Virus record (IMG/VR): IMGVR_UViG_3300026280_000003
DNA from: a virus
DNA: 24,737 nt
Reading direction: 5' to 3' (one strand)
This document shows positions 2,130 to 21,758 of the stretch, piece after piece. The translations under genes and the position numbers were made by a program. A model generated the notes under the pieces. That model saw only the letters and a program-made list of their open reading frames with translations. It did no database searches and was not told the DNA's origin. Each line of letters opens with the position of its first letter. The stretch's first letter is position 1.

Positions 2130-2400
2130 TCTTCCCTCCCTTTTCTAACCCGTTTCTACTGTTTCTACTTTCCCCCTCGCCACACGCCGCCGCAATCCCT
2201 TTTCTGGAGCGCGTTTCCGATACTTATCCGAGTTTCTAACCTTTCTACTTTTTCTACTCTCTTAAGAGTGAGAAAGCTTCTAATAGCTTTCTCACTCTAT
2301 ATATTTTTTATATAATATAGCGAAAGTAGAAACGCATTCAAACCCACATGAGAAGCGGTTTTGCGTTTCTAACCCGTTTCTAACGTTTCTACTTTTACCC
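2130..2400. repeat. Putative replication origin: three clusters of three GTTTCTA(C/A) iteron-like repeats at about 10-bp spacing, flanking a palindrome and an AT-rich tract
   Basis: TTTCTA cores at about 2142, 2153, 2162; 2233, 2242, 2252; 2366, 2376, 2386, plus one inverted copy at about 2326. Lies immediately 3' of the initiator-like ATPase gene. Confidence 0.6.
2265..2320. repeat. Perfect 14-bp inverted repeat (AGAGTGAGAAAGCT / AGCTTTCTCACTCT, 6-nt spacer) followed by an AT-rich tract (ATATATTTTTTATATAATATAG)
   Basis: Read directly; the arms are exact reverse complements. The AT-rich tract is a candidate DNA-unwinding element. Confidence 0.6.
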
Positions 2401-3639
2401 ATGTATAGCCCTCCATTTGCCTCTGGAGGAGTTTTCGGCTAACCCTTGCTTTTTGAGTTCCGATAAAGCGTTCCAGACGCTTTGTTGAGACGCTCCGATG
2501 AGCTTCGCCAGGTCTGCGGGGGTCATTTCACCTTCTTCGAGGAGCAAAGAATATACAACGTCTCTAACAGTGTTTCCCGTTATGTTCGTTTTCAATTCTG
2601 TGTCCGCGCGGGAGACGAATGCGAACCCGTCTTGCCACTGCACGCGCAAGCCGATGGGATCGTGATACCCAAAGTTCGATTTTCGGTTATAGAGCGCGTA
2701 AATGAAAGTTTTTTCGTCATTGGGAGAGCGCCAGAACTTGAGCTCCCAGGTCATGCGCGCGAGGTTTTCGAAAAACACAGACCCAATTGGCATAGCTCCG
2801 TCGTCCTTCTCTTTGTGCGCTTTCGAGACATGGGAAATGATTAACACAGTTACACCCATGTCAGTTAGTTTGCGCACCTCGGCGAAGAAGCGAATCACGT
2901 TCGCCGAATCGATCAGGTCTCCTCCAGACGCCAAAGCCGCTGAGTCGAGGATAACTAATTTCACGTCGTGATGTGTGACGTTTTCAACAATGTTATATAT
3001 CTCCTCTGTCAGTGTTCTTGTGGCTGAGAGGTACAGCGGCGGGCGTTTTCCCGCGATGTCGAGCACAAGCTGGTTGAAGCGCGTATTTGTCAACGCGTAG
3101 TCGAGCTCCCAGTCCATGTAGAGGACGTTGACAGGCTCTTGACGTTGATAATTGAGATCATATCCTGACTGGAGAAGGACAGCGACATAGAGCGCAACGA
3201 TGGATTTTCCTGCACCACCTGGAGCGTAAATAAGAGCAGGGACGCGCGCAGGGAGCAAAGGATATAACAGATATTCTACGGTCGGTAGCGTCTCACAAAA
3301 TTCCAGCGGTTTAGCTTCATTAGGTGTGTGCAAGAGTGTGAAAACGTCGTTGCAGAATTTTTCGACGAGTTTGATCCAATCAACGCCCTCGAAAGGACTC
3401 CCAGCCACGACGTTTTTGATGTAGTTTGCCACGTTTTTTCGGCTTTGCGGGCTGCTCAGGCTTAGTCTTCCAGTGTAAATATGCATTCTTGTGCCATCCA
3501 CGAGGACACCTTTGATTGTTAAAAGACCCGAAGTGTGTTCGTCTTCTATGATTCGCGACAACGAAAATTCGATTGTTCCCATGGCGTAGTTTTCAAACGC
3601 ATAACACCCCAAGGGGGTCTTTTCCACGATCATATTCAT
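2395..3639 (-). CDS. Replication initiator / helicase-like RecA-fold ATPase with C-terminal winged-helix domain
   Basis: Walker A APGGAGKS and Walker B LVILDSAA; C-terminal HTH-like segment TPADLAKLIGASQQSVWNALSELKKQG. Track ORF starts at a TTG at 3660; an ATG at about 3639 overlaps the upstream stop (ATGA) and follows AAGGAGGA. Confidence 0.65.
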   Translation of the reverse strand: MNMIVEKTPLGCYAFENYAMGTIEFSLSRIIEDEHTSGLLTIKGVLVDGTRMHIYTGRLSLSSPQSRKNVANYIKNVVAGSPFEGVDWIKLVEKFCNDVFTLLHTPNEAKPLEFCETLPTVEYLLYPLLPARVPALIYAPGGAGKSIVALYVAVLLQSGYDLNYQRQEPVNVLYMDWELDYALTNTRFNQLVLDIAGKRPPLYLSATRTLTEEIYNIVENVTHHDVKLVILDSAALASGGDLIDSANVIRFFAEVRKLTDMGVTVLIISHVSKAHKEKDDGAMPIGSVFFENLARMTWELKFWRSPNDEKTFIYALYNRKSNFGYHDPIGLRVQWQDGFAFVSRADTELKTNITGNTVRDVVYSLLLEEGEMTPADLAKLIGASQQSVWNALSELKKQGLAENSSRGKWRAIHG

Positions 3640-3896
3640 TCCTCCTTGAGCTTCTCCCAATCTGTCGGTTGTGGACGTGGGCTTGAAGATTTCTTTTGAA
3701 GTTCCTTCAGTAGGACTAACAATATTTCTTGTTGCTTTGCCATCTGCTCCTCGAGCTTTTCTATTCGCTCAAGGAGCATCCTTTCGGCGCGGGAGAGTCT
3801 TCCTGACGAACGGGGCGTGAGACCCCGTTCGTGGTAGAAATCGAGCCAATCAGAAGACACAGGGAAATCGATGTAGTCTTCATTCATGCGAATCAC
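3636..3896 (-). CDS. Hypothetical protein (86 aa) with a coiled-coil segment
   Basis: ORF track; translationally coupled to the ATPase gene; no recognisable motif. Confidence 0.4.
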   Translation of the reverse strand: MIRMNEDYIDFPVSSDWLDFYHERGLTPRSSGRLSRAERMLLERIEKLEEQMAKQQEILLVLLKELQKKSSSPRPQPTDWEKLKEE

Positions 3897-4611
3897 CGTC
3901 TTGCGAGCGTGTTTCGGATAACAATGTTTGTAGCTCGTCTATCAATTTGGATGCTTGAGCTTTTGTTAGCTCTGACGAACTTTGTACGCCGTATCTTTGT
4001 TTGATATCGGCGACAATTTCTTCAACAGAGCATTCGGCTTCTTTTGCGAGATCGTGGATAAGGTGCGTGATCATTTTGATTTGCTTCTCCGTCGCAAGTT
4101 CTTGTTTTTGCGTCTGTTGCGCCGGCTTTTGCTCTGCTTCGGTGGTTTCCATATCTTCTAAGTCTTGGGTGAAAACATTTGAGGCTCCGAGCCCAGTCAA
4201 AACGGCGTCGACGTGTGCACGTTTCTTAGCCATTTTTAATATTGTGTTTGCGTTTCCAAGAGGATTATCGCTCCAATGACGTTTTTCCTTGCTGTTGCAC
4301 GAGCCGAATCCTTCTCCCACGACCTGACCAGACGCGGTTGTGAGTGTAGCCTTGAACATGTAATAAACATAGTTTTCTTCCTCAATCGCTTTTAGGAGCT
4401 CAAAATGTGGTATGAGATTGAAAAGGCGCGTGAGTTTCTCGGCACCCGACTTGTAGAGCGATGGTTTCCCTTCGCGTTTCCCGTGCGGGAAACCGTAATC
4501 GACGTCCGCTTCAAGAACTTCTTTTTGTAACAGTCTGAAGAGATCGTACTGTTCCTTCAGCGCCGTGATTTCTTGCTGTGTTACTGAGATAAGTTTTGGC
4601 AAGTCACTCAT
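3880..4611 (-). CDS. Hypothetical protein, possibly a single-strand annealing / recombination protein (ERF-like?)
   Basis: Track ORF 3880..4620 begins at a GTG that is part of GGAGGTGA; the ATG 9 nt downstream is the likely start. Sits between the resolvase and the replication ATPase. The YYMFKATLTTASG segment resembles, from memory only, the ERF core. Confidence 0.3.
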   Translation of the reverse strand: MSDLPKLISVTQQEITALKEQYDLFRLLQKEVLEADVDYGFPHGKREGKPSLYKSGAEKLTRLFNLIPHFELLKAIEEENYVYYMFKATLTTASGQVVGEGFGSCNSKEKRHWSDNPLGNANTILKMAKKRAHVDAVLTGLGASNVFTQDLEDMETTEAEQKPAQQTQKQELATEKQIKMITHLIHDLAKEAECSVEEIVADIKQRYGVQSSSELTKAQASKLIDELQTLLSETRSQDGDSHE

Positions 4612-4804
4612 TTTCTTCACCTCCCAAAACTTTCTTCAGTTCCTCGTAGAAGGCTTGTGCCTCGTCCTTTTCGAAGGTTTCCGTGCTCCCGTCTACGAAC
4701 TGGATCTGCAACAGCGGGCCGCGCGCGAAGACGTACGTTATCGCGGATACGTTGTTCGTGTTCAGCCAAATAACACTTTGCTCTTTCTGTAGCCTCACCC
4801 ACAT
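4604..4804 (-). CDS. Hypothetical small protein (66 aa)
   Basis: ATG start; preferred over an overlapping Arg-rich alternative frame (4617..4832). Confidence 0.4.
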   Translation of the reverse strand: MWVRLQKEQSVIWLNTNNVSAITYVFARGPLLQIQFVDGSTETFEKDEAQAFYEELKKVLGGEENE

Positions 4805-4852
4805 GCCTTCGCCTGCCTCCCTCAGGCTCCACCTCCTCCTGAGTTTTCTACA

Positions 4853-4881
4853 TCTAACATAGTGGGAGGGACTATGTTAGA
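4853..4881. promoter_or_regulatory. Perfect 11-bp inverted repeat TCTAACATAGT-GGGAGGG-ACTATGTTAGA in the 5' region of the leftward operon (operator or RNA hairpin)
   Basis: Arms are exact reverse complements; the 7-nt loop GGGAGGG is SD-like on one strand. About 50 nt upstream of the ATG at 4804. Confidence 0.5.
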
Positions 4882-4972
4882 CGTGCTAAAGTTTTTCGAA
4901 TCTCGCTAAGATAATATCGACTAAGTTTTGCGATCGCATGAAGCTACCGTAACGATCCCCAAACGCATAGCT

Positions 4973-5062
4973 GAAAAACACGTGAATTTATCATAGGGAG
5001 AAAAACACGTGGTATGATAGAATTGAAAGAAAATAGTTGTGGTAAACTCCAGGTGTGGTAAA
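4973..5062. repeat. Direct repeats in an AT-rich intergenic region: GAAAAACACGTG x2 (27-bp period) and TGTGGTAAA x2 (16-bp period)
   Basis: Copies at about 4973-4984 and 5000-5011; and at about 5038-5046 and 5054-5062. TGTGGTAAACT recurs on the opposite strand at about 5477-5488, just upstream of the resolvase gene. Confidence 0.5.
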
Positions 5063-5092
5063 ATAGAATATTAGCCTGCTCCACCTCCCTTC

Positions 5093-5129
5093 AAATAGAA
5101 AAAGCGCTTTAACCCTCCTTTGGGAGGGT
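5093..5129 (-). terminator. Putative intrinsic terminator/attenuator overlapping the 3' end of the resolvase gene
   Basis: Minus-strand hairpin ACCCTCC-CAAA-GGAGGGT followed by the palindrome AAAGCGCTTT and a T-rich run TTTTTCTATTT. Confidence 0.45.
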
Positions 5130-5459
5130 ATTTCGTTTCAAAAGTTTCTTCAGGGTCTCTAACTCCATGCAAACAATCCAATCTTTTCTGTCTGCTCTAA
5201 CAAAGAGCAAATCCGCGCGCTCAAGGAAACGATACAGCGTTTCAAAACCGCGTGCGCGCCTCTTGACCTCTACGACCCACTGCGGATGTCCCTTTTCGAA
5301 AACGACGACATCGCCTTTTTGGAACTCGGACGCTCCCGAAAGTGGGACGCGTTTTGCGTCGAAACCGAGCTCGCGAAGGATTTCTTCTGCCTCCTTCTCG
5401 CCACGGTATCCTTTTCTCCGCGAAAGCTTTCCCACAAACAATCCCCCCTTCTCTGCCAT
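5109..5459 (-). CDS. Holliday-junction resolvase, archaeal Hjc-type PD-(D/E)xK nuclease
   Basis: Pattern GYRGEKEAEEILRELGFDAKRVPLSGASEFQKGDVVVF...VVEVK matches the Hjc arrangement (G..E...L...GF...R...SG......D....(E)xK). Likely start is the ATG at about 5459 (RBS GAAGGGG); the track ORF begins at a GTG at 5465. Confidence 0.55.
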   Translation of the reverse strand: MAEKGGLFVGKLSRRKGYRGEKEAEEILRELGFDAKRVPLSGASEFQKGDVVVFEKGHPQWVVEVKRRARGFETLYRFLERADLLFVRADRKDWIVCMELETLKKLLKRNTLPKEG

Positions 5460-5549
5460 TTGCACCCCTTCAACAATAGTTTACCACATGAACGGCGCGG
5501 TGGCTAAGGGAGGAGAACATGGGTTGCGCTTTCTCGGTTTCATCATTCT

Positions 5550-5614
5550 GCAATGTACTTGATCGCAAGTCGTTACGGAGTCTACATTATGTCGCAATGT
5601 AGGGGGGGTATAAT
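5550..5614 (+). promoter_or_regulatory. Control region for the plus-strand operon: three AATGTA half-sites, including the inverted repeat CTACATT-N7-AATGTAG, directly upstream of a TATAAT -10 box
   Basis: GCAATGTAC at about 5550-5558; CTACATT at about 5582-5588; AATGTAG at about 5596-5602; TATAAT at about 5609-5614. No good -35 hexamer at 17-bp spacing; the inverted repeat occupies that position. Confidence 0.5.
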
Positions 5615-5683
5615 TGGGGTGAAAAGTGTTTGAGAAGCCCCGCCGGGTGAGGTGGCGGGAAAACGGGAAAGGAGGGGTGAAGG

Positions 5684-5902
5684 ATGAAAGATGTGCGAAA
5701 AATCATTGAAGATTGGCTCGAGAACAGGATGTGGCATCTCATACCACAAGAGACACGGCAAAAAGCGGAGCAGTTGTTGCAGCAAGGGGTTGCGGGAATC
5801 GATTTAAAGGGTCTCATCATCGTGCTTCATCATTTTGTTACTGAACCGGTCGAGACTCGTTACGGAACCGACATCGTAGCGCAACGAAAGGCAGTAAAAT
5901 AA
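5684..5902 (+). CDS. Hypothetical protein (72 aa), first gene of the only plus-strand operon
   Basis: ATG preceded by GGAAAGGAGGGGTGAAGG; no recognisable motif. Confidence 0.5.
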   Translation: MKDVRKIIEDWLENRMWHLIPQETRQKAEQLLQQGVAGIDLKGLIIVLHHFVTEPVETRYGTDIVAQRKAVK

Positions 5903-5956
5903 AAGTGGAAAACAACAAATGCCGTCGGGGAACGACGGCAAAAGGGAGGGGGAAGT

Positions 5957-6310
5957 ATGGGAAAGATAACTTTAGAGTCATTGGAGGCACCCTATGTCTT
6001 AAAAGAAAGCACGTATTTCTGGCGGACGGAGCGGCATGCGGCCGCGCGCCGCAGCCGCGAGAAATACTACGTGAGCCTGGTAGAAGACTGGTTGAGGCGC
6101 CTTTGTGAACAACACGGGTTGAACCTCAGAATTGAAAAGACAGACACGAGCGTCGCGGCATACAACAAAGATGAGCAGGTATTCAAATTCACAATCAGGT
6201 TAAGTTGCCGCCACGTTTACAAGAGACAAGATGTGAAAAAGTTACTGCGGCTGGTTTCTGAAACGCAAAGGAAAGGAGGTGACGGACGTCCTCCCGCGGC
6301 AGGGGAGTAA
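5957..6310 (+). CDS. Hypothetical protein (117 aa), basic
   Basis: ATG preceded by AGGGAGGGGGAAGT; no recognisable motif. Confidence 0.5.
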   Translation: MGKITLESLEAPYVLKESTYFWRTERHAAARRSREKYYVSLVEDWLRRLCEQHGLNLRIEKTDTSVAAYNKDEQVFKFTIRLSCRHVYKRQDVKKLLRLVSETQRKGGDGRPPAAGE

Positions 6311-6339
6311 AAACGGAGAAGAGGAGGTGGAAGCCCGCG

Positions 6340-6693
6340 GTGGGAGGCGCGGGCAAGGCGATGGGAAAGGCAGAAGTACTTCAAAAGCTGCGCAAATTCT
6401 TGAGAAAGAATCTCTGGGAGATCCCCGAGGTCCAAGAAGCGGTCGCGCAGTTGGAGAGATTGGCCGCGCAGCACGATTGGTACCCCTCAGACGTGCTCAA
6501 CTTTGAAATCATGTATGAGAACAAGCCGCGAGCGCTCAGGATAATTTTCAGTGCTCCTGTTGAAACGCTCGGCGAAGACTCCGTAAAAGAGATGCACCGC
6601 TGGCAAGAAGTAATAGCGACCGCAGTCCAGTCCTTTGTTTTGAAAACCCTCGAAGCCGAAGGTCTCCCATGGGAAATTGTGAACGAGCTCTGA
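6340..6693 (+). CDS. Hypothetical protein (117 aa by the track GTG start; alternative ATG at about 6361)
   Basis: GAGGAGGTGG about 9 nt upstream of the GTG at 6340; ends at a TGA immediately before the bidirectional terminator. Confidence 0.5.
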   Translation: MGGAGKAMGKAEVLQKLRKFLRKNLWEIPEVQEAVAQLERLAAQHDWYPSDVLNFEIMYENKPRALRIIFSAPVETLGEDSVKEMHRWQEVIATAVQSFVLKTLEAEGLPWEIVNEL

Positions 6694-6710
6694 AAAAGCA
6701 CCGCACTGCG

Positions 6711-6741
6711 AAAAGGTCCGCTCACGAGGAGCGGACCTTTT
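6711..6741. terminator. Bidirectional intrinsic terminator between convergent genes
   Basis: AAAA-GGTCCGCTC-ACGAG-GAGCGGACC-TTTT: 9-bp perfect GC-rich stem flanked by an A-tract and a T-tract; located between the plus-strand stop at 6693 and the minus-strand stop at 6744. Confidence 0.8.
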
Positions 6742-6743
6742 GC

Positions 6744-10946: not shown

Positions 10947-11981
10947 TCAGAAAGGACTTTGATCGACCACGGGAATCGTCGTCGTCCCTAAATCTATTTC
11001 CGCCACGACGCGCCCCGAATATCCAGTCAAGGGACTTGCTTCAAGCGCAAGCACAAGACCGAAATATTGAAACCCATCTGGCGCTTCAATTGCTTGCGGA
11101 GTTATATTCGACAAATTCACGTCCACGTATGAGCCTAAAGAAGGCGGATTAAATTCAACTAACAAGTTGTTGATCGCTATCGCGATATAACCTGGCTCAA
11201 AAATGGCAAATTTTGCGTCATAGAGGCGGAATTTTTTCAAATTGCTATGCATCCTCGAATCACGCACAAAGAACGTGTATTGAAGCGCGCTCGTGCGCGG
11301 TCTGATCGAATCTAACCCTGCTTGAAAAGCTGAAATTCTGTAGTGTGGTGTCACTGTGTTAGAACCCTGACCGAGGACAAGCGCGGGATAAGCTATCCCC
11401 CACGCGGTTCTTTCTCGTATTTGCCCATTTATCTCGCGAGCCGGTGGGTGCACTTCGTCGATGCTCGGCATTTGCGACACCGGTTCGGCACCGCTGCGGA
11501 AATACTCTCTAACATAGTTTTGTGTCACCGTTTCGGACTTTCTCTGCCGAAACTCGCCAGGAACCTGACTGGTGAAAGTGTATCCGCCTTCGTATTCTGC
11601 GTAGTAAATCGCATACTTGTTAAAACAAAATTCTGGGAACGTTGACGTGATATCGCTCGGGTAAAGTTTGTCCCGCGGAAAGCCTACATATTGGATATCG
11701 CAAATGGAACCATCTTGGCGCGTGAAATAAATGAAGTCAACAAAACCAGTGTTAGACACGTCACGCAAAATGTGACTAAGCGGACTTAGCAAAAGATTCC
11801 CTTCAACCGCGTAACCCCAATCAGTTATGTTTAATCCAGAATGCGCGAACACTCCGACCTTCAAACCAATTTGGCGTATCGCATTCCATAAAGCTAACAC
11901 ATTTGAAGCGGATCTCACAAAGACAAACGCATTCGTATGTGATGAAAGCGTCCGAATCGCGTTATAGTCCCCAATTTGCAT
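10947..11981 (-). CDS. Putative tail fibre / receptor-binding protein (344 aa)
   Basis: Position in the tail-tip gene block; no motif recognised. Confidence 0.4.
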   Translation of the reverse strand: MQIGDYNAIRTLSSHTNAFVFVRSASNVLALWNAIRQIGLKVGVFAHSGLNITDWGYAVEGNLLLSPLSHILRDVSNTGFVDFIYFTRQDGSICDIQYVGFPRDKLYPSDITSTFPEFCFNKYAIYYAEYEGGYTFTSQVPGEFRQRKSETVTQNYVREYFRSGAEPVSQMPSIDEVHPPAREINGQIRERTAWGIAYPALVLGQGSNTVTPHYRISAFQAGLDSIRPRTSALQYTFFVRDSRMHSNLKKFRLYDAKFAIFEPGYIAIAINNLLVEFNPPSLGSYVDVNLSNITPQAIEAPDGFQYFGLVLALEASPLTGYSGRVVAEIDLGTTTIPVVDQSPF

Positions 11982-12734: not shown

Positions 12735-13842
12735 TCAAAGCGCGGTCGCAGAAGAACGCGTACAAATGTCCGAGATTTTCAGTCAAACTTCCTATCAAAT
12801 ACTGTTGCTCTAAAACGAACACGCCTGGGATCTTCGCCATTGTGTCTCCTTGTATGGCATTGGGAATGTCATAGAGGATTTCAGCTTCTTGTTCGCCTTG
12901 GGTGTTGAAAACGCCAATTTTGTTCACTTTTGGCACGAAGAAGCGCGCGCCAGTAGCGTCGAAAAACGCTTGCAGAGCCAGCGTGTCCTCATCTGGAACA
13001 TAAGCAAGTAACCGAGTGTCGCTTATCAGTGTTTCTGCAATCCAAACTTGTTTCGCTGGTCCTGATACAGAAACTATTCCCGCCACTGGCCCCCTTATAA
13101 GCGTCACTGTCGCGATCGTTTCCGCCACGCTCGAACCATCAGACCTAAAAATCTTCATTTCAACCATGTTTTCTATGAACGTGTCGTACTTCGCCACGAC
13201 CATAAACGATTGTGAGTTTTCAATATCTATGTGAGGTATGTCGGGTTCCGCGAAAAGGAGCCTGTGCAAAGCGTTGAATGACACTTTTTGCAAGTATGGA
13301 CCGTACTCTGAGTCGTAAACGATTTCAAAAACACTTACACCCTTATTAGTACGCACGCACACGTACTTTTCGCCAGCACTAATAGACACAGCCGAAAACG
13401 ACGCGCCGATGAGGCCGAACGCTTCCAGATAGTCTCCGCCAAAGTAAAGCCCATAAAACCACCCATATTTCACTCCACGGAAGGCGCATATGAGGCCATT
13501 TATCGCGTAAGGGATAACAACCCGCGGTTCTAACATTGTCACATGAATCTCAGTCGTCGGGATCTCCAACACAGCTGGCGCTTCGAGGCTAACAATGACG
13601 TTCGGAGTCCCTTTATAGAAAAGTTTTTCGACGAGAGGAACAACGTTCATGCCTGGTCCAAACAACAATCTTTGACCGAGCGAATAATCTTTTGTGGCGG
13701 GTAGGTAGCAACTTTCGCCGTTGTAGGAAACCTCTGCCCAGCGCCTTCCTTGCGCGTCTGTGACGAATCGTTCAAGAGGGATGATGTCTATTTCATTTCG
13801 ATACCTTTCAATCACGCGTTCAATTGGATCGCGTCTCATCAT
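12616..13842 (-). CDS. Putative tail-tip/baseplate structural protein (408 aa)
   Basis: Large ORF in the tail module downstream of the tape measure; no motif recognised. Confidence 0.45.
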   Translation of the reverse strand: MMRRDPIERVIERYRNEIDIIPLERFVTDAQGRRWAEVSYNGESCYLPATKDYSLGQRLLFGPGMNVVPLVEKLFYKGTPNVIVSLEAPAVLEIPTTEIHVTMLEPRVVIPYAINGLICAFRGVKYGWFYGLYFGGDYLEAFGLIGASFSAVSISAGEKYVCVRTNKGVSVFEIVYDSEYGPYLQKVSFNALHRLLFAEPDIPHIDIENSQSFMVVAKYDTFIENMVEMKIFRSDGSSVAETIATVTLIRGPVAGIVSVSGPAKQVWIAETLISDTRLLAYVPDEDTLALQAFFDATGARFFVPKVNKIGVFNTQGEQEAEILYDIPNAIQGDTMAKIPGVFVLEQQYLIGSLTENLGHLYAFFCDRALNVSNYTEIECYDYLGTYSAWPAHTLLQVRPWQRFCFLPK

Positions 13843-20603: not shown

Positions 20604-21758
20604 TTACTTCCAGCGCATTTGTTTAGCCACAATATCAACAATGTCAGCGCTATCTGGGTTCACGAATTGACGTACCAAATTGCGTTTCGTGTGCTCTGCG
20701 AGTTTCAAGATACTTTCTTTGTCCATCTTACCTTCTTTGAATAGTCTAACATATTCTTCGGCAAGTGCTGGCGGTACACCTTTTTTGACTAACTCTTGTT
20801 TGAACGCGTTGAGCTCGCGCTCTCTTTCTTTCTCTTTGAATTCGTTGATCGTGTTCTCGTACTCTGTTAGCTTGTCCATAAGATGTTTGTTCATTCTTTT
20901 CAGGCGCTCGATCTCCTCGCACAACGCGACTTCGTCCGAGCCACGGAATTCTTCTCCGAACAGTTCGTAAATCTCCTTGATCTTGCGAATAACTTCGAGC
21001 TTTTCCGCGTCTGTCAGATCGACCTCAACACCACGCGCGCCATGCAGGTAAGCAAGTGCCGCGACGGCGGCGCGAAAGTAAAGGTGAAATTCTCCGTTTT
21101 CGAGTTTGCAGACTGGAAACTTGTAGGCTGCTTTCACTTCAGGAACTCCGCTGGGGCCTTCTTCAAAATCGCGCGTGTTCGCGTACAAATGACACTTCGC
21201 ATACGCTTTCCATCCTTTTTCCTCGATAATTTTGTTTCCATCCCGCGCGTCGTCCCAGTCCCATTGCTTCGTGCGCTCGGGAACAACAAGCATCCCGTTC
21301 CAACGTTTCCTCTCGCTGAGGAGTCGTCGCATACCCGAAAACATGGCGATGAAAACATCTTTGAAAGTTAGCTTCGTCTCAGGAAGCGCGGGGCGATTCG
21401 TGAGCGCGACGCCGAGCAACACGACACCGACTTCCTCTCCCGTCTCGCGGTCCACATAAGCGAAGTCGATTTCGGGGCTCACGTACTCGTACTTGTGTTC
21501 CTCTAACATTTTTTGTCCTTCCTCATTTAGTTCGAGCACTGCCCACAAGCCGTCTTCTTCGATGTAGAGCTCCTTCACGTCGCCGTACTTTTCACTTGAT
21601 TCGTGATCAATGTTCACGAACGGCTTGTAGTGTGGATAGCCTTTGTTGAAGTTCTTCACGATCTCTTCGGCGAGCTCTTTCGTAAACTCGATGGGTTCCT
21701 TTTGACCGTACACGTAGATTTTGCCGAAAGGAAGAATCTTCGCTTTCGCTAACATCAT
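20604..21758 (-). CDS. Prohead protease / scaffold protein (Mu gpI-like), with a C-terminal coiled coil
   Basis: N-terminal region VNIDHES...DGLWAVLELNEEG...YEYVSPEIDF resembles the Mu I pattern (VDYEH...DGLY...YRY.SP.F); C-terminal half is Glu/Lys-rich coiled coil. Confidence 0.6.
   Translation of the reverse strand: MMLAKAKILPFGKIYVYGQKEPIEFTKELAEEIVKNFNKGYPHYKPFVNIDHESSEKYGDVKELYIEEDGLWAVLELNEEGQKMLEEHKYEYVSPEIDFAYVDRETGEEVGVVLLGVALTNRPALPETKLTFKDVFIAMFSGMRRLLSERKRWNGMLVVPERTKQWDWDDARDGNKIIEEKGWKAYAKCHLYANTRDFEEGPSGVPEVKAAYKFPVCKLENGEFHLYFRAAVAALAYLHGARGVEVDLTDAEKLEVIRKIKEIYELFGEEFRGSDEVALCEEIERLKRMNKHLMDKLTEYENTINEFKEKERERELNAFKQELVKKGVPPALAEEYVRLFKEGKMDKESILKLAEHTKRNLVRQFVNPDSADIVDIVAKQMRWK

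Follow-up and report, generated by a model that had tools for sequence, protein, structure and literature searches.

Comparison with Described Antisense RNAs and Accessory Cassettes

In phage P22, the sar RNA pairs with the ant mRNA and blocks the initiation of its translation (PMC12197685; PMC5415839). In phage lambda, the OOP RNA promotes RNase III-dependent decay of the cII mRNA (PMC5415839; PMC12197685). These two RNAs appear to be the closest analogues of the locus analyzed here, a 304-bp gap between a resolvase gene and a gene for an orphan protein of 66 amino acids (aa) in the IMG/VR virus record IMGVR_UViG_3300026280_000003. The analyzed DNA of 24,737 nucleotides (nt), herein referred to as the window, is a part of the genome of an uncultured thermophilic phage whose head genes are Mu-like, and nearly all genes of the window are located on the minus strand. 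On balance, we lean towards reading the gap as a compact regulatory cassette inside the leftward early/replication operon, the right half of which would form an antisense unit on the opposite strand. The gap and its flanking genes, the latter being those described in the first-pass annotation of this region, are as follows:

4805-5108, 304-bp gap between the resolvase gene and the 66-aa gene
5109-5459, minus strand, resolvase gene of the Hjc/PDDEXK type, with Pfam and PHROG matches; start codon ATG at 5459-5457
4604-4804, minus strand, 66-aa orphan gene; start codon ATG at 4804-4802

Conservation was compared among the window, its 99% variant L110, and L088, one of the four contigs (L088-L091) that form a sister lineage. 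Contig GBSSWat77C belongs to this sister lineage, and the growth temperature of the host is presumed to be ~75-80°C.

Like sar, the RNA predicted for this gap is short, has its own promoter in an intercistronic region, is directed against a phage operon, and contains a complement of a Shine-Dalgarno (SD) sequence. It differs from sar in that no start codon follows the SD-like element that it would cover in cis (5078-5088), and in trans it matches the leader of the 66-aa gene over 11 nt only. There is no sequence or Rfam relationship between the two RNAs, and the one described here is predicted from sequence, for a thermophilic host and with Gram-positive-type signals. Like OOP, it would be an RNA of ~70 nt with a promoter just downstream of an early gene, antisense into the 3' end of this gene, and with an intrinsic terminator. 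In contrast to OOP, the overlap is ~30 nt, the overlapped gene encodes a resolvase and not a lysis-lysogeny regulator, three tandem promoters are present instead of one, and no homology is seen.

The concept of the moron reportedly goes back to comparative genomics of HK97 and HK022 (work associated with Juhala and Hendrix). All features of a moron are present in L088, where a promoter, a gene for a 168-aa orphan protein, and a terminator are located between adjacent operon genes, and relatives lack the insertion. The copy in the window differs in being gene-less, and this cassette is further distinguished by a conserved leader hairpin, a second, gene-less promoter, and a terminator overprinted on the C-terminal codons of the neighboring gene. 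In Firmicutes, small RNAs with C-rich seeds (RoxS/RsaE-type) target G-rich SD sequences, and in Bacillus a 5' stem-loop and a STAB-SD sequence stabilize mRNA, the former on the condition that the stem lies within a few nt of the 5' end. The locus resembles both systems: in the predicted RNA, a single-stranded C-rich segment could pair with G-rich SD sequences, and in the leader of the 66-aa gene, a stem-loop is followed by a start-less SD-like element (4826-4836) upstream of the true SD. It has no sequence relationship to either. Standard phage biology includes antisense RNAs, divergent promoters with operators, and leader hairpins, and no new mechanism is involved. If the prediction holds, the locus would be a thermophilic, Gram-positive-type addition to the few phage antisense RNAs of defined architecture.

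Repeats and Candidate Extended -10 Promoters

In the first-pass annotation, the gap was described as an AT-rich regulatory region with one hairpin and two families of direct repeats, one of them recurring in inverted orientation before the resolvase gene. All of these repeats were found:

4853-4881, hairpin TCTAACATAGT-GGGAGGG-ACTATGTTAGA
4973-4984 and 5000-5011, two copies of GAAAAACACGTG, 27 bp from start to start
5038-5046 and 5054-5062, two copies of TGTGGTAAA with a spacing of 16 bp
5478-5488, inverted copy TGTGGTAAACT, upstream of the resolvase start at 5459

The AT-richness is only mild, with a GC content of 0.41-0.43 in the gap and ~0.49 in the flanks. Both the repeats and the hairpin exceed chance. 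When the 304-bp gap was shuffled 2000 times with its dinucleotides kept, 6 shuffles contained a direct repeat of at least 12 nt and 2 a perfect stem of at least 11 bp; the gap itself has 8 repeated 9-mers compared with a shuffle mean of 0.2. Exact TGTGGTAAA occurs in only three copies in the window, all within this early region, and no further copy of GAAAAACACGTG with at most one mismatch was found in the window. The hexamer CACGTG by itself is not enriched (9 copies, 5.9 expected). Additionally, several features had been overlooked: a fourth GTGGTA-type element (5009-5023), the 11-mer GCTCCACCTCC in two copies (4826-4836 and 5078-5088), a third repeat pair (4889-4899 and 4923-4933), a plus-strand terminator (stem at 5112-5129), and the nature of the gap as a clade-specific cassette that in the sister phage contains an opposite-strand gene.

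The gap repeats look mainly like backward-facing promoters that lead into a dedicated terminator. The form TGTG-n-TAnAAT, represented by the TGTGGTAAA copies, fits the TRTGn type of extended -10 promoter, and the TRTG motif at -16 is a described element of Bacillus sigma-A promoters (PMC6570832). The pattern was defined as TRTG at -17 to -14, one spacer base, and a -10 hexamer with A at the second and T at the sixth position. Three plus-strand sites (5013-5023, 5038-5048, and 5054-5064) and two minus-strand sites (5488-5478 and 4995-4985) fit this definition. In a regular-expression scan, the motif was found seven times in 24.7 kb, and five of the seven sites belong to this early region. The gap has three of these five on its plus strand and a fourth on its minus strand, and the resolvase promoter is the fifth. 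The minus-strand site of the gap is considered below with the middle segment, and the other four are listed here:

5009-5023, plus strand, candidate promoter P1, cGTGgTATGAT or TATGaTAGAAT; 87% identical to P3 over 15 nt
5038-5048, plus strand, candidate promoter P2, TGTGgTAAACT; 11-mer identical to that of the resolvase promoter
5054-5064, plus strand, candidate promoter P3, TGTGgTAAAAT; TGTGgTATAAT in L088
5478-5488, minus strand, resolvase (early leftward) promoter, TGTGgTAAACT (TGTGGTAAACT); -35 element TAGCCA at a spacing of 17 nt

In a position-weight scan of the region 4780-5700, P3 is the top-scoring promoter (12.2) and the resolvase promoter is the top site of the minus strand (10.8). 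The motif of the latter is located 19 nt before the start codon, with an SD sequence in between. Extended -10 promoters can do without a -35 element; the candidate -35 hexamers, sought at a spacing of 16-18 nt, are TTGTGG for P3 and TAGCCA for the resolvase promoter, and those of the other sites are poor. P1-P3 face rightward, against the operon, and the terminator lies 58-117 nt downstream. The same motif is found at promoter distance from three transcription units: the resolvase gene of the window, the 168-aa gene of L088, and the resolvase gene of L088. Thus, the TGTGGTAAA copies are read as promoters because they fit the consensus, share their motif with sites in front of real genes, and face a terminator that is present on the plus strand only.

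On the same grounds, promoters for an antisense RNA are the best supported of the regulatory options offered in the first-pass annotation. Sites for a transcription factor are plausible for the GAAAAACACGTG pair and perhaps for the palindrome, and a role of the hairpin as a processing or stability structure is possible. Also considered was a promoter like lambda P_RE that would serve the plus-strand genes at 5684-6693; it finds no support, as the plus-strand terminator predicted at 5112-5139 would lie in between. The TGTGnTAnAAT consensus, together with the terminator examples, may be used for annotation of this uncultured hot-spring phage group.

Predicted Terminator and Antisense RNA

The right half of the gap and the adjoining resolvase codons contain the following elements:

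5112-5139, plus strand, predicted intrinsic terminator, ACCCTCC-TTTG-GGAGGGT followed by ATTTCGTTTC; located within the resolvase gene, in its variable C-terminal codons
~5070 to ~5139, plus strand, predicted non-coding antisense RNA; ~68 nt from P3, ~84 nt from P2, and ~110 nt from P1
5078-5099, plus strand, C-rich 22-nt segment GCTCCACCTCCCTTCAAATAGA, which holds copy B of the 11-mer; anti-SD-like on the RNA

In both the window and L088, a GC-rich stem-loop directly followed by a U-tract is found on the plus strand and not on the minus strand. The terminator of L088 (GCTCCCGCTCTGGGAGC plus ATTTTTC) has another sequence, with the fold and orientation kept. No terminator was found on the minus strand between the resolvase gene and the next gene. 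Transcripts from the resolvase promoter should therefore read through and would be fully complementary to the predicted RNA; for the same reason, an antitermination structure in the leftward transcript, another proposal of the first-pass annotation, finds no support here.

Since the promoters face this terminator, a short non-coding antisense RNA is probably made beside the conserved leader hairpin. The predicted RNA would reach 29-31 nt into the 3' end of the resolvase gene, and in the window and L088 alike its C-rich 5' half is predicted to be unstructured and to be followed by a terminator hairpin. As far as sequence signals go, it has the marks of a cis-antisense RNA: its own promoter and terminator opposite to the operon, no coding capacity, and an overlap with the target. 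No open reading frame (ORF) with a ribosome-binding site was found in the gap; a small protein or a type I toxin-antitoxin system was rejected, as the ORFs of 22-46 aa all lack such a site. Rfam gave no matches for the whole window at gathering thresholds, and in E-value mode the best match for 4700-5700 reached 14 bits compared with thresholds of 37-49, so no family was assigned. A scan of IMG/VR for the exact pattern of the C-rich 16-mer returned 3 matches, all of them unrelated chance occurrences in different contexts.

Copy B of the 11-mer (5078-5088) directly follows an in-frame TGA and resembles an ordinary stop-plus-SD gene junction, except that no gene comes after it. No start codon lies within reach of this SD-like element in the window, L110, or L088. 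Over 11 nt, the predicted RNA is complementary to the SD-like element in the leader of the 66-aa gene (4826-4836). In the minus-strand transcriptome, the best partners predicted for this RNA are the site to which it is itself antisense, an SD at ~1147, the leader of the 66-aa gene at ~4840, and another SD at ~1397.

The proposed mechanism would be as follows. Three tandem TRTGn promoters of the sigma-A/sigma-70 type, P1-P3, would fire rightward, P1 being built partly from the second copy of GAAAAACACGTG and P2 and P3 corresponding to the two copies of TGTGGTAAA. Their transcripts would end at the terminator in the last resolvase codons, giving non-coding RNAs of ~68-110 nt. Such RNAs could pair along their full length with read-through transcripts from the resolvase promoter and over 11 nt with the SD-like element of the 66-aa leader. 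The effect would be lower expression of the downstream replication operon through antisense pairing and interference by convergent transcription. The left half would comprise a leftward promoter between two 12-mers, likely operators of a phage-specific regulator, as well as the leader hairpin and two SD elements. The identity and orientation of the motifs, their pattern of conservation, and the limits of the cassette are read directly from the DNA; that the promoters fire and that the RNA exists and acts is what we infer from them.

A different mode of action can be imagined for the same RNA. The heptamer CACCUCC is the anti-SD core of 16S rRNA, and it is contained in the RNA segment GCUCCACCUCCCUUCA. 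The short RNA may thus mimic the 3' end of 16S rRNA and bind phage SD sequences of the GGAGGUG type (~4840, ~1147, ~1397), a speculative idea that we consider a long shot. If true, the RNA would time translation of phage replication and late genes at 75-80°C, and the leader hairpin with its CCCUCCC loop would be a second, cis-acting and temperature-sensitive anti-SD element.

Cassette Structure in Sister Phages

A single protein-guided scan of a genome collection gave one distant homologue, and a protein-guided metagenome scan added one more close variant (L110) and one short relative with 54% identity and no gap. The resolvases of L088-L091 (P0003) are 83% identical to that of the window in protein sequence, and the flanking genes of L088 are 76-80% identical at the nucleotide level. 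The distance between the resolvase and 66-aa genes is 820 bp in L088-L091, compared with 304 bp in the window. The extra DNA in L088 is the 168-aa orphan gene, which lies on the strand opposite to the operon (L088 5402-5908, minus strand of that contig). This gene has TGTGgTAGAAT 16 nt before its SD and ATG. A second promoter, TGTGgTATAAT, follows its stop codon and serves no gene; after it come GCTCCACCTCCCTTCAGATAGA and then a stem-loop with a U-tract on the same strand. The resolvase gene of L088 is preceded by TGTGcTATCAT.

Between the window and L088, 10 of the 11 positions of P3 and 21 of the 22 positions of the C-rich segment are identical, the fold of the terminator is kept with another sequence, and the linkers between the conserved elements have diverged. 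The 156-bp middle segment (4882-5037) is not conserved: its score against L088 was equaled or exceeded by 46 of 300 shuffles. Within the lineage of the window, the gap is 100% identical in six contigs, though their flanks have substitutions, and has three substitutions in L110. The two TGTGGTAAA copies match the two promoters of L088, so their 16-bp spacing marks the place where the 168-aa gene is absent. The gene-less promoter of L088, followed by the conserved C-rich segment and a terminator, indicates that the promoter-terminator unit is kept independently of the gene.

The boundaries of the cassette are visible in the sequence. The exact 11-mer GGAGGTGGAGC has only two copies in the window, one at each end of the gap, and is also present at the corresponding ends in L088. 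In distant homologues of the resolvase (~50% identity), the next gene follows directly, with no gap, and the C-terminal tail that is encoded here by the terminator stem is absent; this tail is not conserved. Because the more distant homologues lack the gap, it appears to be a clade-specific cassette that arose by insertion or module exchange at the ancestral junction of the resolvase and 66-aa genes.

The 168-aa protein has no Pfam match, even at E = 1, no PHROG match, and no homologues beyond its own cluster. An IS200/IS605-like element, suggested by subterminal hairpins and the ~170-aa ORF of L088, was rejected: the protein has no Pfam match and contains no histidine, so an HUH motif is excluded. 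No terminal inverted repeats were seen either. At L089 5543-5585, 11 substitutions compared with L088, L090, and L091, to which L089 is otherwise 99-100% identical, are clustered within ~42 bp of the 168-aa gene, which suggests a recombination patch or a targeted hypervariable spot.

The same comparison offers another explanation of the locus, namely that the promoters and terminator are leftovers of a moron that lost its gene, that the RNA, if made, has no function, and that the 11-mer repeat is no more than a footprint of recombination or insertion. It fits the promoter, 168-aa gene, and terminator found in L088 at the same place and orientation, the orphan status of the 168-aa protein, which is typical of accessory cargo, the promoters of the window 16 bp apart with nothing between them, and the gapless distant relatives. 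It does not account for the gene-less TGTGgTATAAT after the 168-aa stop codon of L088, which is followed at the same distance by the C-rich segment with 21 of 22 positions kept and then by the terminator, nor for the absence of any substitution in the gap among six contigs and the mere three in L110. We regard such an inert scar as unlikely, though a serious contender. If instead the antisense prediction holds, a moron cassette would have left a working promoter-terminator unit that was kept as a regulator.

Several points weigh against an antisense function. Only three sequence lineages are available (the window, L110, and L088), so the conservation statistics are weak. The -35 elements are poor, and a generic sigma-70 scan requiring both hexamers found no promoter in 4400-5800. 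The U-tract of the terminator is interrupted in the window (ATTTCGTTTC), and both the terminator stem and the 11-bp pairing would be only marginally stable at ~75-80°C. The best predicted target in trans is the SD of another gene (~1147), and the complement of GCTCCACCTCCCTTCAAATAGA is a generic strong SD as found at other gene junctions. In L088, the conserved 22-mer overlaps the stop region of the resolvase gene, and its conservation may have other reasons. The short RNA could also be a by-product of a gene-less moron and not a regulator.

Middle Segment and Putative Operators

The 156-bp segment between the hairpin and P2 contains the GAAAAACACGTG repeats, which form a 27-bp tandem duplication, and the remaining promoter-like sites:

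4973-4984, copy 1 of GAAAAACACGTG, putative operator at ~-6 to +6 of the candidate leftward promoter
5000-5011, copy 2 of GAAAAACACGTG, putative operator at ~-33 to -22 of the leftward candidate; overlaps the -16 element of P1
4985-4995, minus strand, candidate leftward TRTGn promoter of the 66-aa/replication operon, TATGaTAAATT; position-weight score 6.8
4889-4933, third direct-repeat pair, AAGTTTTTCGA and AAGTTTTGCGA, 34 bp apart, around a weak leftward -10-like TATTAT (4911-4916)

The minus strand reads CACGTGTTTTTC-tccc-TATGaTAAATT-CACGTGTTTTTC, a layout consistent with a back-to-back promoter pair with two operators. The candidate leftward promoter has no conserved counterpart in L088. 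Within the third repeat pair, the leftward combination ATGCGA-17-TATTAT scores 6.9 in the position-weight scan.

The placement of the 12-mers also bears on the possibility that the TGTGGTAAA copies, the GAAAAACACGTG pair, and the palindrome are operators at which proteins of the phage or the host control leftward transcription, perhaps by looping to the resolvase promoter, and that none of them is a promoter. Consistent with it, the candidate leftward promoter has one 12-mer at ~-33 to -22 and the other at ~-6 to +6, the two arms of the palindrome keep their sequence and not their pairing alone, and the stem is AT-rich and would be only marginally stable as RNA at ~80°C. Furthermore, the GAAAAACACGTG repeats lie in the segment that is not conserved in L088, and the small divergent genes nearby are not the same in the two phages either, a pattern known from immunity regions. 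The TGTGGTAAA copies themselves are arranged as two direct copies and one inverted copy 430 bp away. The exact fit of TGTGGTAnAAT to an extended -10 element and its location at promoter distance from real genes in L088 argue for promoters instead. No DNA-binding domain was detected with Pfam or PHROG in the adjacent 72-, 117-, and 117-aa proteins, and the half-sites of the palindrome are 18 bp apart from center to center, a spacing unusual for a helix-turn-helix dimer. Protein binding as the sole explanation of the repeats is therefore judged clearly unlikely; for the GAAAAACACGTG pair, an operator role beside the antisense unit is the arrangement suggested above.

Hairpin and Leader of the 66-aa Gene

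The left part of the gap would form the leader of the 66-aa gene and contains three elements:

4850-4884, minus strand, hairpin or palindrome with 14 pairs including one G.U; the 11-bp core (4853-4881) is perfect, and the loop reads CCCUCCC on RNA of the minus strand
4826-4836, minus strand, copy A of the 11-mer, GGAGGTGGAGC; left boundary of the cassette and, within the leader of the 66-aa gene, an SD-like element; conserved in L088
4816-4821, minus strand, SD sequence GGGAGG of the 66-aa gene, 11 nt before the ATG; kept in L088 at the same spacing

On the minus strand of the window, the hairpin reads ACG-UCUAACAUAGU-CCCUCCC-ACUAUGUUAGA-UGU. Its fold has a predicted energy of -17.1 kcal/mol at 37°C and a z-score of -7.5. 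The hairpin has conserved counterparts in L110 and L088 and lies 47-48 nt before the start codon of the 66-aa gene. In L110, the innermost pair is lost and the flanking G.U becomes G-C; in L088, the outer pair is C-G where the others have U-A, and the next pair is A-U. In total, two pairs are changed on both sides, and 93% of the alignment cells are paired, compared with 17-38% when the partners are slid by 1-3 columns. With three sequences only, this is suggestive of compensatory change.

Read in operon direction, the hairpin has no U-tract behind it and is therefore no terminator in this orientation. The stem is AT-rich, with predicted melting near 85°C and -2 to -4 kcal/mol at 75-80°C, and the loop is complementary to the true SD GGGAGG (4816-4821). 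Candidate roles include a palindromic operator, a stabilizer or processing site of the leader, and a cis-acting anti-SD or thermosensor element. A scan of IMG/VR for the exact pattern of the hairpin core gave 12 matches, all of them unrelated chance occurrences with other loops and contexts.

The hairpin arm TCTAACATAGT recurs inside coding regions, with one exact and three one-mismatch copies at 11508-11518 (plus strand), 11353-11363 (minus strand), 13529-13539 (plus strand), and 20745-20755 (plus strand); by our own estimate, ~0.4 matches with at most one mismatch are expected. With up to two mismatches, 22 matches were found compared with 3.5 expected. The hexamer TCTAAC is strand-biased, 29 of its 34 copies being on the plus strand, and codon bias may explain much of the excess of TCTAACATAGT. 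A role of TCTAAC as a dispersed site was rejected, since the strand bias points instead to codon bias and origin iterons. A 71-aa ORF with a GTG start (4617-4832, minus strand) overlaps nearly the whole 66-aa gene in another frame and starts within the 11-mer GGAGGTGGAGC. The 66-aa frame, and not the 71-aa frame, was called in all contigs, and the 66-aa sequence looks like a real protein. A homologue search with the 66-aa protein gave none, and it thus provided no extra loci for comparison.

Likely Replication Origin and Other Terminators

Direct repeats that resemble iterons and an inverted repeat in AT-rich DNA beside replication genes could also indicate a replication origin. The gap adjoins the recombination and replication module (the resolvase, a GemA-like 243-aa protein, and an AAA_25 helicase) and shows the mild dip in GC content noted above. 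A far better candidate is located directly after the helicase gene, at 2127-2400, and we consider an origin in the gap very improbable. Iteron-type origins usually have at least three iterons and an A/T-rich unwinding element, are located beside the initiator gene, and are conserved together with the initiator. The repeats of the gap occur in two copies each and are absent from L088, though the helicase genes of the two phages share ~80% nucleotide identity. In contrast, all of these features are found at 2127-2400, where the iterons GTAGAAAC/GTTAGAAAC number at least nine and run in both orientations. This region also has a tract of 22 bp made up of A/T alone (~2300-2321) and an inverted repeat that is perfect over 14 bp (2265-2298). 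The region 2127-2400 is thus a likely iteron-type replication origin, and an origin at 4805-5108 was rejected in its favor. In this way the analysis separates the regulatory gap from the likely true origin.

Two other terminators were observed near the early region. One, at 5920-5940, has the stem-loop TGCCGTCG-TTCCC-CGACGGCA plus a T-run and is oriented on the minus strand between two plus-strand genes, mirroring the plus-strand terminator inside the minus-strand resolvase gene. The other, at 6711-6741, is bidirectional (13-bp stem with AAAA/TTTT flanks) and is located at the convergent gene junction 6694-6743.

Gene Order and Neighboring Genes

Around the resolvase gene, the gap, and the 66-aa gene, the early region and its leftward operon have the following order, listed from the divergent promoter region onward in the direction of leftward transcription, with the divergent genes last:

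5466-5683, divergent promoter region, first in the leftward transcription order
3880-4611, minus strand, gene for the GemA-like 243-aa protein, followed by a gene for an 83-aa protein
2395-3633, minus strand, gene for the AAA_25 helicase with a C-terminal winged helix; small genes and then the terminase come next
5684-6693, plus strand, three small genes (72, 117, and 117 aa), divergent from the resolvase promoter

Exact copies of the 243-aa protein were found on six hot-spring or metagenome contigs. No relatives were found in a collection of cultured-phage genomes, except for a 100-bp patch within the 243-aa gene, and no tRNA or tmRNA genes were found in the window. The N-terminal domain of the 243-aa protein is of unknown function (phrog_10048, E = 4e-38); its C-terminal region is GemA-like and also weakly matches annealing proteins of the RecT and Erf type at their C-terminal ends. 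More than 100 relatives of this protein are present in IMG/VR.

In L088, different genes replace the 72-aa gene and the first 117-aa gene of the plus strand. Among the replacing genes, that at L088 4159-4800 (minus strand) encodes a 213-aa protein matching Cas_VVA1548 (PF09652). In L110, a deletion of ~100 bp in the divergent promoter region (L110 1-90 compared with window 5488-5600) joins CATAATGT directly to GGTAAACT, so that a single copy is left of the 17-nt repeat found twice in the window (5541 and 5585). The resolvase gene of L110 has extra codons after the start codon, and a related 131-aa protein (P0002) has an N-terminal extension of 15 residues.

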